From Alphaproteobacteria bacterium (GTDB lineage Bacteria > Pseudomonadota > Alphaproteobacteria > Holosporales > JBOFFI01), in contig JBOFKH010000255.1 in NCBI GenBank assembly GCA_051657225.1, positions 1-34,120 of the forward strand: DNA of 34,120 nt, given 5' to 3'. The position numbers and the translations under genes are program-made. Within the stretch, counting starts at the first letter, position 1. Each line of letters starts with the position of its first letter. The notes beneath the pieces were generated by a model. It had not been told where the DNA came from, did not search any database, and worked only from the letters and a program-made list of their open reading frames with translations. Below are positions 7,811-9,336 of the stretch, piece by piece.

Positions 7811-9336
7811 CGGGCAAAAATTTTTCTTTAGGGGAGCAAAAACAGCACCGAAAAACACAAGCAAAGAGATCAAATTTTTTAGAAAAACAAGAAATAGATT
7901 TTTCAAATCAAAGGCGAATCAATGCTTCAGAAACTATGGATCATAGGGTCCTCTTAGCAGGCCTTGATTTCCCATCTCCTTTGAAAACTAAAGCAGCTCC
8001 ACATGGTAGACCAAATAATGCAGATATAGATTCCGATTTTTTTAAAAAAAGCATAGATTTAAGACAACACATACAAGAAAGTTTTGGAAATCTTTTAGAG
8101 GAACAAAAAATAAATTTTTCGAATCAAAAGCGAGCCAACATTTCAGGGTCTACAAATCTTAAGATGCTTCTAGCAGGTCTTATCTTCCTGTCTCTCTTGA
8201 GAACAAGTGAAGCAGCTCCACAAAATAGATCTTGCAATGCAGATATAGATTCTATTAATTTTTTTGATTTTTTTGATGTTCATACAGATTCAAAAAAAAT
8301 CGTAAAAGCGAGCTTCGGGACTTTGGGCCTTCCTCCAACGTGCCTTCATGAATTTCCTGAGAAGTCACTTAAAAATTTGGAAACAAGGCTAAGAGATGAA
8401 ATCAAGCAACGCGTTTTTGATTGTGTTAAGGCAAAAAACCTCACCACCTCTGAGAAAAATTTTATGGCCTTTGCTAAAAGAAAAACCTTTTCTTATCTTA
8501 CACTTCAGCCCAATCTTCAATTTGACCCTGTAGATCGAAAATTTGGTACTTATCTTGGTAAAACGCTGCTTAATTTTGATGATTACCAAGCACTCGAAAA
8601 GCGTTTTCCTTTTGGAATATCTGCAGTTTGCAATCAAAATTTTACTACCTTTTATATGCGATCCGCCAATACTAGTTTCTTTCTGCAAAGAACTGCTGGA
8701 AATGAGCTTCATCAAATAGAAGAGCTGGGCAGTAGACTGATGAGAGGATATTGTCTTGCTGAGGATGCTGATACCTCTTTCGTACCAGATGTTCCTTCCT
8801 GGTATGAGTTTTTAAATTCAGATGTTGCAAAAATAACTGGGATTGGAATTGCTGGAGTTGCTGTTGGCGCTGTAGCAACAGTTCTTGTGACTGAAGCGTG
8901 CAAAAAGAAGGCTCCTGAGTCGAAAAAATTAAGTTGTAAATTTAAAAATGGCGTTTCTCCTAAGGCAACGGTCAGTTTAATTTCAGACCCTACCCCCACA
9001 TCTATGCCTAAAATATGGAGCTACGCTGTGGGTGGAGGCCAAACAAGGTTTTCCCATTTAATAGAAAATCCAAGTTCCGAAAGCTCTGAACATGATCCGG
9101 ATTATCCAGCGGCAAAATCTTCTGGGAGCTCTGACCATGATCCCCATTACCTAGAGATGAAATCTGCGACAAAGACAGCGTATCCAAATTATGAAGAAGT
9201 GAAACCTAAAGAGGTGACGCGAAAACTCTATGATACACTTAAAAGTCCAGCTGTTCCAGTTAGGAATGAATATGCAAACGTAAAATTAGAGGAAAACTTT
9301 TTAACAGGGCAAACTTCGGCTGTTACAGCAAATTAA
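7744..9336 (+). CDS. Hypothetical exported single-pass membrane protein, paralog 1 (signal peptide, repeat-containing ectodomain, Gly-rich TM, Tyr/Pro/Ser-rich tail)
   Basis: 530-aa intact ORF in A/T-rich DNA. The GTG start is preceded by an AAGGGA RBS. The N-terminal signal peptide has a possible lipobox (IASC). The TM helix ITGIGIAGVAVGAVATVLV spans about 8833-8901 and is followed by a KKK basic patch. No family recognised. Confidence 0.75.
   Translation: MSKKIVSSLIIASCCFNSLPVYAGKNFSLGEQKQHRKTQAKRSNFLEKQEIDFSNQRRINASETMDHRVLLAGLDFPSPLKTKAAPHGRPNNADIDSDFFKKSIDLRQHIQESFGNLLEEQKINFSNQKRANISGSTNLKMLLAGLIFLSLLRTSEAAPQNRSCNADIDSINFFDFFDVHTDSKKIVKASFGTLGLPPTCLHEFPEKSLKNLETRLRDEIKQRVFDCVKAKNLTTSEKNFMAFAKRKTFSYLTLQPNLQFDPVDRKFGTYLGKTLLNFDDYQALEKRFPFGISAVCNQNFTTFYMRSANTSFFLQRTAGNELHQIEELGSRLMRGYCLAEDADTSFVPDVPSWYEFLNSDVAKITGIGIAGVAVGAVATVLVTEACKKKAPESKKLSCKFKNGVSPKATVSLISDPTPTSMPKIWSYAVGGGQTRFSHLIENPSSESSEHDPDYPAAKSSGSSDHDPHYLEMKSATKTAYPNYEEVKPKEVTRKLYDTLKSPAVPVRNEYANVKLEENFLTGQTSAVTAN
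7873..8265 (+). repeat. Internal tandem duplication in paralog 1 (two ~57-59 aa repeats, period 216 nt)
   Basis: NFLEKQEIDFSNQRRINASETMDHRVLLAGLDFPSPLKTKAAPHGRPNNADIDSDFF aligns with NLLEEQKINFSNQKRANISGSTNLKMLLAGLIFLSLLRTSEAAPQNRSCNADIDSINFF. Confidence 0.8.
9082..9171 (+). repeat. 45-nt tandem duplication in the paralog-1 tail (SSEHDPDY / SSDHDPHY)
   Basis: agctctgaacatgatcc at 9082 recurs as agctctgaccatgatcc at 9127. This duplicates a Tyr-containing acidic motif. Confidence 0.7.

Follow-up and report, generated by a model that had tools for sequence, protein, structure and literature searches.

Why would a bacterium encode a membrane protein whose C-terminal tail reads like that of a eukaryotic signaling adaptor, and into which cytosol does such a tail project? 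This question is posed by a gene, here denoted paralog 1, that is located at 7744..9336 on the forward strand of a 34,120-nucleotide stretch of DNA (the window), which is contig JBOFKH010000255.1 (C255) of a 1.45-Mb, 292-contig metagenome-assembled genome (MAG; GCA_051657225.1; 93% complete) of an alphaproteobacterium from the order Holosporales. According to the list of open reading frames (ORFs) and their translations, paralog 1 encodes 530 amino acids starting from a GTG codon. Its 145 C-terminal residues, C386-N530 (8899..9333, +), are predicted to be disordered and contain seven tyrosines together with two juxtamembrane cysteines, Cys386 and Cys398. A second gene, paralog 2 (9767..11485, +; 572 amino acids), has the same layout. 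The original prediction, made from the window alone, quoted the tail sequence, which exactly matches the translation of 7744-9333 (+), and emphasized a tandem duplication of an acidic tyrosine motif, likened to the expansion of EPIYA repeats in effectors that are phosphorylated on tyrosine. We find that a different signal is the more interesting one, namely, a conserved core of motifs that is common to the tails of paralogs 1 and 2, within a receptor-shaped, recombining protein family.

The composition of the tail was described correctly from the outset, with seven tyrosines in a sequence rich in Ser, Pro, Lys and Glu: residue counts in C386-N530 give 13% S, 12% K, 9% P and 7.6% each of E, A and T. 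The tyrosines (Y427, Y454, Y469, Y480, Y483, Y496 and Y510, six of them within 57 residues) account for 4.8% of the tail, compared to 2.6% of the proxy proteome of the same genome. The suggested disorder is supported as well: the FoldIndex of the tail is -0.018 (-0.18 in windows centered on residues 451-476) versus +0.052 for the ectodomain, and the share of disorder-promoting residues is 56% in the former and 47% in the latter. No secondary structure appears in the tails of either paralog in AlphaFold2 models; these models are of low confidence overall (the mean predicted local distance difference test score, pLDDT, is 29.5 in paralog 1 and 40.3 in paralog 2), and because both are poor throughout, the low pLDDT seen in the tail lends the disorder weak support.

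All four motifs that had been named in this tail, YLEM, YEEV, YDTL and YANV, are present, and two additional sites that had been overlooked, AYPN (Y480) and PAVPVR, can be added to them. YLEM (9148-9159, +; Y469), a YxxM site of the PI3K-p85 type, resides within the second unit of the tandem duplication. In AYPN-YEEV (9181..9201, +), a Grb2-type YxN site (Y480) overlaps a Src-family-SH2-type YEE[VI] site (Y483; YEEV itself, 9190-9201, +). YDTL (9229..9240, +; Y496), which is replaced by YDTP in both orthologs, can be classified either as an Nck/Crk-type YDx[P/V/L] site or as a YxxPhi site (Phi, a hydrophobic residue), whereas PAVPVR (9247..9264, +) is a class II SH3-type PxPhiPxR motif, and YANV (9271..9282, +; Y510) is a second Grb2-type YxN site. 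When phosphorylated, YxxM is a p85 site and YDx[P/V] is an Nck/Crk site. The definitions of pYEEI, pYxN and RxxPxxP are those given for the adaptor LIME (PMC2194117).

Paralog 1 was found only in the window, in L009 (L009:1-1311; 66-70% identity) and in G003 (49%). Across these three orthologs, Y469-x-E-M, Y483-E-E, Y496-D-T and P502-x-V-P-x-R507 are invariant (P502, V504, P505 and R507 in the SH3-type site), so that the expected conservation of the tyrosines in homologs held for those of YLEM, YEEV and YDT and failed for the other four. The 166-residue tail of paralog 2 contains YEPP, YIEI, YLEM, AYAN, PQVPPR and YDTF, and aligns with the tail of paralog 1 weakly but collinearly, through YLEM, AYxN and YDT (P=0.03), with A479-Y480 of paralog 1 aligned to AY[AV]N of paralog 2. 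The motif Y[LV]EM is present in all 9 sequences of paralogs 1 and 2 that were compared. Fifteen tail columns do not vary within or between the two paralog groups, and YLEM, AY and YDT contribute 9 of them. Y-D is kept almost without exception in 11 members of the family, short-tail paralogs included (YDAV, YDIA, YDGV). As judged from these alignments, the tail is an array of putative short linear motifs in which the core YLEM ... AYxN ... YDT[L/P/F] together with PxVPxR is common to both paralogs, whereas YEE[VI], YANV and DPDY are lineage-specific extras.

Could such an array be produced by chance in a sequence of this composition? When the paralog-1 tail is shuffled 20,000 times with its composition preserved, 1.18 YxxPhi motifs are expected against 4 observed (P=0.017), 0.34 YxN against 2 (P=0.038), 0.02 Src-type Y[EDIV][ED][IVLM] against 1 (P=0.022), and 0.09 YxxM against 1 (P=0.09). 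Three of the four SH2 classes are present in this tail (P=0.017), and 5/7 tyrosines fit some motif class (2.05 expected, P=0.023); in the paralog-2 tail, all four SH2 classes are found (P=0.0006). The motif PxPhiPx[RK] occurs once per tail, with 0.04-0.05 expected (PAVPVR, P=0.04; PQVPPR of paralog 2, P=0.05). The excess over composition-matched sequences that had been anticipated does exist but is modest, at P about 0.02; because every class was selected with the sequence already in view and paralogs 1 and 2 are not independent, it is suggestive rather than compelling. When the 1356 ORFs of at least 150 amino acids in the genome were ranked by how many different SH2/SH3 motif classes fall within 110 residues, paralog 2 came first (5/5 classes), and paralog 1 (4/5) shared the second place with one transposase-like ORF. 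Elsewhere in this genome, a 329-amino-acid ORF (locus L018, G000:C31:1790-2776, +) that shows no Pfam match contains YDIP, YIPP and LYEEP in a Ser/Lys-rich sequence, and may be another protein with eukaryote-like tyrosine motifs.

The 45-nucleotide tandem duplication itself is genuine. The two units, SESSEHDPDYPAAKS (9076..9120, +; Y454) and SGSSDHDPHYLEMKS (9121..9165, +; Y469), are in frame and identical in 33/45 nucleotides in the best register, which is the same register as the originally quoted 9082/9127, compared to a mean best match of 22.3 and a maximum of 28 in 300 codon shuffles of the tail; Tandem Repeats Finder, at a score of at least 30, does not list the duplication because the copies are only 73% alike. 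What does not survive is its interpretation as an EPIYA-like expansion of an acidic tyrosine motif. The G003 ortholog contains two units in the same place, and unit 1 of the window shares 33 identities with the first of these and 25 with the second, unit 2 shares 30 with the second and 27 with the first, and the two G003 units share only 23 with each other. Since each unit of the window is closer to the matching unit of G003, the duplication predates the split of these species. The L009 ortholog has a single hybrid unit, in which the first 14 nucleotides match unit 1 and the remainder unit 2 (41/45), the signature of the loss of 45 nucleotides by unequal crossing-over. The expected variation of copy number among relatives is accordingly confined to one (L009) or two (window, G003) units, and never more, in the three known orthologs. 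Unit 1 does not keep its Tyr, which is deleted in L009 and displaced in G003, whereas that of unit 2 (YLEM/YVEM) is conserved; YANV, outside the repeat, is HANV in G003. Taken together, these comparisons show the duplication to be an old, recombination-prone two-unit segment of a disordered region, as opposed to a phosphorylation motif that expanded recently; the duplicated unit, when taken as an expanded tyrosine motif, is the least conserved part of the tail. A second 45-nucleotide tandem repeat, near-perfect (97%, two copies), is present at 18153-18241 of the window, in a gene for a Cys-rich secreted protein on the minus strand.

The interpretation of the tail depends on the protein to which it is attached. 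Paralog 1 consists of a signal peptide, an internally duplicated N-terminal module (the duplication is seen as a second high-scoring segment pair), an alpha/beta ectodomain, a single transmembrane (TM) helix and the tail, the ectodomain comprising approximately 340 residues. The gene caller starts the protein at a TTG in codon 80, which yields a shorter version of 451 amino acids; the GTG at 7744 is to be preferred because residues 1-100 are conserved in relatives. The Sec-type signal peptide MSKKIVSSLIIASCCFNSLPVYA (7744..7812, +) is predicted to be cleaved by signal peptidase I (SPase I) before G24, a leader ending in P-[VI]-x-A↓G is common to all family members, and the ratio of nonsynonymous to synonymous substitution rates (dN/dS) in the leader is 0.09-0.29. 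The Gly/Ala-rich TM helix ITGIGIAGVAVGAVATVLV (about residues 362-385; 8827..8895, +) has a 19-residue Kyte-Doolittle peak of 2.24, the 53rd percentile among TM-like peaks of the same genome, and is directly followed by CKKKAPESKK, in agreement with the positive-inside rule. Leader aside, the only other 19-residue window above 1.4 is at residue 133 (1.42), and since the underlying stretch LLAGLIFLSLL is too short for a membrane span, paralog 1 has a single membrane-spanning helix. All these features show paralog 1 to be, by prediction, a Sec-exported, single-pass (type I) membrane protein with a disordered C-terminal tail. Within the folded part, only residues 195-315 of the paralog-2 model reach a pLDDT of 70-81, and a Foldseek comparison of the AlphaFold2 models to the PDB produced no match at E<=0.001.

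Some peculiarities of the N-terminal region deserve a mention in their own right. No region is as conserved throughout the family as its signal peptide (window 7744-7812 and 9767-9835; contigs C167, C145 and C142 of the same genome), with positions K3, K4, S7, L9 and N17-S-L-P20 nearly invariant although the mature parts are only 20-25% identical; such conservation is unusual for a Sec signal and may reflect a dedicated step of recognition. A lipoprotein was considered and rejected: the lipobox-like IAS↓C is not kept in the paralogs, whereas P-V-x-A↓G is. Downstream of the leader (7936-8250; residues about 65-170), there are two short hydrophobic stretches, LLAGLDFPSPL and LLAGLIFLSLL, one in each copy of the internal duplication of approximately 72 amino acids; the second is followed by RTSEA↓AP and resembles the h- and c-regions of a signal peptide. 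This module is present in one copy in single-copy paralog-2 orthologs and is replaced in paralog 2 of the window.

The comparison of orthologs reveals a history of recombination that bears on any claim of constraint. Between the window and L009, the synonymous distance (dS) is 0.02-0.05 in the N-terminal module (residues 84-170) and the distal tail (0.035 in the latter), compared to 0.72, with 49% identity, in the ectodomain core (171-360), where L009 resembles the distant G003 ortholog. Such a jump, from 0.02-0.05 in the flanks to 0.72 in the core, marks paralog 1 as a recombinant mosaic. Nor can the 91% identity between the distal tails of the window and L009 be taken as a sign of constraint: the tail dS is as low as 0.035-0.055, and it is recombination that sets the tail apart from the ectodomain. 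Against the more distant G003, paralog 1 has a higher dN/dS in the tail (0.57-0.67) than in the ectodomain (0.38). The motif-bearing tail of paralog 2 has a dN/dS (0.29-0.57) similar to that of the folded core (0.20-0.48) and is, like the core, under purifying selection. The mosaic structure of the ectodomain core fits a protein that would be under host-interaction pressure.

What, then, is the family to which these proteins belong? Paralogs 1 and 2 are homologous over the leader and the ectodomain (26% identity, E=4e-13) and sit between phrB and a GT4 glycosyltransferase gene, a slot in which paralog 2 is also found in G001, G002, G003, a contig from ERR14374427, and L009. Paralog 1 shares with the family the leader P-V-x-A↓G, the alpha/beta core of the ectodomain, the Gly-rich TM helix and the YDx tail. 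A hidden Markov model of the family recognizes 5-6 members in the same genome, with paralog 1 detected at E=5.7e-115 there and at 4.7e-104 in the order-wide search, which covered 22 genomes and identified clear members only in four genomes of genus g1, with 5-6 in each; G010, from another genus, gave a marginal match (E=3.5e-6) limited to profile positions 383-469. When 1.84 billion representative proteins were searched with a profile, 14 matches were obtained, one of them a spurious repeat protein, and all the others that include the N-terminus carry the same bacterial-type leader; the N-terminally truncated matches P0004 and P0127 are paralog-1 orthologs from the genomes of relatives. Paralog 1 shows no match in Pfam or NCBIfam, the family profile has none among PDB sequences, and two metagenome scans for additional orthologs found none; relatives are present in SRR31913117, ERR14374427 and JGI 3300083086. 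Judged by these searches, paralog 1 belongs to an undescribed, genus-restricted, recombining multigene family.

The remaining members of this family have tails of other kinds. Three short-tail members are encoded in the same genome (G000), on C167 (431 amino acids), C145 (428 amino acids) and C142+C108 (one gene across two contigs); the sole common element of their tails is a membrane-proximal [R/N]xxYD[AI][AV] that corresponds to YDT of the long-tail paralogs. The remote homolog P0136 (512 amino acids, N-terminally partial), one of the matches among the 1.84 billion representatives, possesses a tail of approximately 270 residues that cannot be aligned with those of the paralogs and contains PVYDQVNEF, VIYDQLNF, PLYAVP, LPRPPATLPRPP and RRPLPKPP; the two [VI]YDQ[VL]N and two RxxPxxP sites (P=0.018) suggest an independent, eukaryote-like set of tyrosine and SH3-type motifs. 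The C-terminus of another remote homolog, P0128 (SGDSSDHPDGHIY), was considered as a relative of the repeat unit and dismissed because the similarity is not significant (P=0.60).

The gene content of the genome indicates where this bacterium lives. TypA is approximately 67% identical to proteins of Paracaedibacteraceae and Candidatus Odyssella, the nearest named relatives; homologs are labeled Alphaproteobacteria; and genomes of the order span 0.6-1.7 Mb. The MAG encodes an ATP/ADP translocase, a type VI secretion system sheath protein and two secretins. The ATP/ADP translocase is a hallmark of energy-parasitic intracellular bacteria, and its presence implies that this bacterium lives inside a eukaryotic cell; it is an obligately intracellular, genome-reduced alphaproteobacterium. 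Hanks-type, Tyr-kinase-type and Wzz/BY-kinase genes were not found in the 93%-complete MAG, so that phosphorylation of the tail tyrosines would require a host kinase.

An intriguing possibility suggested by these observations is that the tail faces the host cytosol and, once phosphorylated by host kinases, serves as a docking platform for SH2 and SH3 proteins; it is this interpretation that we favor, tentatively, over the others. Under this scenario, paralog 1 would be inserted in a membrane of host origin, its ectodomain pointing to the lumen or to the bacterium and its tail to the host cytosol; phosphorylation of the tail tyrosines by host kinases would follow; and the tail, as a transmembrane adaptor mimic, would recruit proteins of the PI3K-p85, Grb2, Nck/Crk and Src-family types. 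Compatible with this scenario are the leader, the TM helix with its positive-inside flank and the disorder-type tail, the excess of motifs, the sharing of YLEM-AYxN-YDT between the paralogs, and the putative motif set in the tail of P0136, as are the high ranks of both paralogs for distinct SH2/SH3 classes, the purifying selection on the paralog-2 tail, the mosaic ectodomain core and the intracellular life of the bacterium. Other observations weigh on the opposite side. In paralog 1, Y427, Y454, Y480 and Y510 (4/7 tyrosines) vary among the orthologs, and conservation of the Tyr and motif columns (0.57) does not exceed that of the remaining tail columns (0.62, P=0.70); the Tyr columns of paralog 2 show a marginal excess (0.85 vs 0.63, P=0.06), and the G003 ortholog of paralog 2 has lost YIEI, YxN and the Tyr of YDT. 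The tails of the short-tail members are only 20-35 amino acids long, with YDx as the only motif. The motif classes were picked post hoc, after the sequence had been seen, and very many proteins were screened. There is also the problem of delivery: a VirB4 (PF03135)-type type IV secretion system (T4SS) was not detected in the MAG, which at 93% completeness does not prove its absence, nor was an injectisome, the sole FlhA-type gate (FHIPEP) being inside a FlgE-FliF-FliG flagellar cluster, and no ankyrin-repeat genes were found in the MAG. With an ordinary Sec/SPase I leader and a TM helix of hydrophobicity typical of this genome, the default prediction is that the protein is retained in the inner membrane and its tail remains in the cytoplasm of the bacterium. 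Finally, the eukaryotic host might not possess phosphotyrosine-SH2 signaling at all. Mimicry of host adaptors is a hypothesis that the sequence features suggest, less likely than not although slightly ahead of its rivals. Its most elaborate version, a Tir/LAT-like scaffold in which a Sec-exported type I protein of a fast-recombining family would reach a host-derived membrane independently of a type III secretion system (T3SS) or T4SS, and host-phosphorylated YLEM, YxN, YDxP and YEE[VI] together with PxVPxR would assemble PI3K, Grb2, Nck/Crk and Src-family proteins, we consider rather unlikely.

The default prediction is itself the most serious competitor. Paralog 1 could simply be a protein of the bacterium's own envelope, with a periplasmic ectodomain, a TM helix that stops transfer in the inner membrane and a tail left in the bacterial cytoplasm, where it binds bacterial partners or is a spacer, the resemblance to SH2 and SH3 ligands being fortuitous in a disordered segment rich in Tyr, Pro and Ser. 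We hold this view to be a realistic possibility, almost equally likely to that of a host-facing docking tail. The standard SPase I leader, the ordinary TM hydrophobicity and the positive-inside flank are what it predicts, and it accommodates the failure to find an injectisome or T4SS in the MAG, the lack of preferential conservation of the paralog-1 tyrosines, the family members with tails of 20-35 amino acids, and single-motif P values of only 0.02-0.09 for post hoc classes. It does not readily account for both paralogs being at the top of the genome for co-occurring SH2/SH3 classes, for a remote homolog, P0136, with an independent tail of the same flavor, or for the purifying selection on the paralog-2 tail, and neither a bacterial partner nor a Tyr kinase can be discerned; furthermore, to our knowledge, type I proteins with a cleaved leader and a disordered cytoplasmic tail of 145-166 amino acids are unusual in Gram-negative bacteria. 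A host-facing tail, in turn, need not be phosphorylated: the YxxPhi tyrosines (YLEM, YEEV, YDTL and YANV, along with YDAV/YDGV in the short-tail paralogs) could be sorting signals for the mu subunits of adaptor protein (AP) complexes that steer the protein, or the membrane surrounding the bacterium, through host trafficking. This mechanism is available in any eukaryote, protists included, and the named relatives of the lineage are symbionts of amoebae; 4/7 tyrosines belong to YxxPhi (1.18 expected, P=0.017), and the only family-wide tail motif is YDx[V/L/A] near the membrane or the C-terminus. Nevertheless, we regard this explanation as improbable, given YDTP in both orthologs, the occurrence in paralog 2 of YANS, YVNA and YEPP, which do not have a hydrophobic residue at +3, and the conserved Asn at +2 and PxVPxR that it leaves unexplained; besides, it faces the same delivery problem as a phosphorylated docking platform. 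As for the capture of a receptor or adaptor gene from the eukaryotic host by horizontal transfer, the receptor-like type I layout, the Pro/Thr-rich stalk in relatives, the juxtamembrane Cys and the tail with Tyr motifs would all be in line with it. This origin is nonetheless very improbable, and we reject it: there is no eukaryotic homolog among the 1.84 billion representatives and no Pfam match, the leaders are of the bacterial type in all matches that have an N-terminus, and the bacterial synteny, from phrB to the GT4 glycosyltransferase, is conserved in at least 5 genomes.

The choice between the two cytosols matters. With the tail in the host cytosol, this family would represent a new architecture for bacterial mimicry of phosphotyrosine or short linear motifs, combining a Sec leader and type I topology without an injectisome or T4SS, in a lineage of intracellular alphaproteobacteria that has barely been sampled; it would offer concrete, testable docking motifs, as well as a family that preserves the core of the tail while its ectodomains recombine. 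Should the tail instead remain inside the bacterium, the lesson would be a cautionary one: disordered bacterial tails can acquire clusters of textbook eukaryotic motifs, which, unless there is a delivery route, do not justify calling a protein an effector.

How does paralog 1 compare to known systems? As for the suggested kinship with known tyrosine-phosphorylated effectors, the delivery routes by which these are defined, a T3SS injectisome or a T4SS, were not found in the 93%-complete MAG, and paralog 1 has an ordinary Sec leader and TM helix. The EPIYA-type effectors, CagA, Tarp, BepD-F, AnkA and LspA (PMC3593179) as well as AteA (PMC13753828), similarly combine several Tyr motifs in a disordered region with an adjacent structured domain, and have acidic or Pro residues ahead of the Tyr (here, DPDY, DPHY and NEYA); a weaker likeness is that their motif segments are duplicated by homologous recombination (PMC3593179), with copy numbers that vary between relatives (here, one or two). 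Unlike these effectors, the present tail contains no EPIYA proper (DPDY-P, DPHY-L and NEY-A are only loosely related to E/N-P-x-Y-A/E/G), shows no sequence homology to them, does not conserve the duplicated Tyr, and belongs to a protein with a Sec leader and TM helix in place of a T3SS or T4SS signal; the likeness with respect to phosphorylation and SH2 binding appears to be one of motif resemblance only. Tir of enteropathogenic and enterohemorrhagic Escherichia coli is likewise a membrane protein with a disordered C-terminal cytosolic domain that carries Tyr docking sites, among them a YD-type Nck site, the EHIYD motif (PMC3593179). However, Tir is a T3SS-injected two-TM hairpin in the host plasma membrane with both termini cytosolic, whereas paralog 1 has one TM helix, a cleavable Sec leader and a large N-terminal ectodomain, with no homology to Tir and no injectisome found. 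Surface anchoring by sortase, exosortase or rhombosortase was considered and discarded, as there is no LPXTG, PEP or GlyGly motif before the helix, 145 residues follow it, and no NCBIfam family matches. The one family in which membership of paralog 1 is confirmed is its own, undescribed one. The nearest functional analogs also include the eukaryotic adaptors LAT, LIME, PAG/Cbp and SIT (LIME: PMC2194117), in which one TM helix and juxtamembrane Cys are likewise joined to a disordered tail that combines pYxN (Grb2/Gads), pYEEI-like (Src-family), PI3K-type and SH3-type motifs. These adaptors are metazoan and have a very short ectodomain, in contrast to the bacterial protein with its ectodomain of approximately 340 residues and no detectable homology, so that the likeness of paralog 1 to LAT and LIME is one of analogy only.

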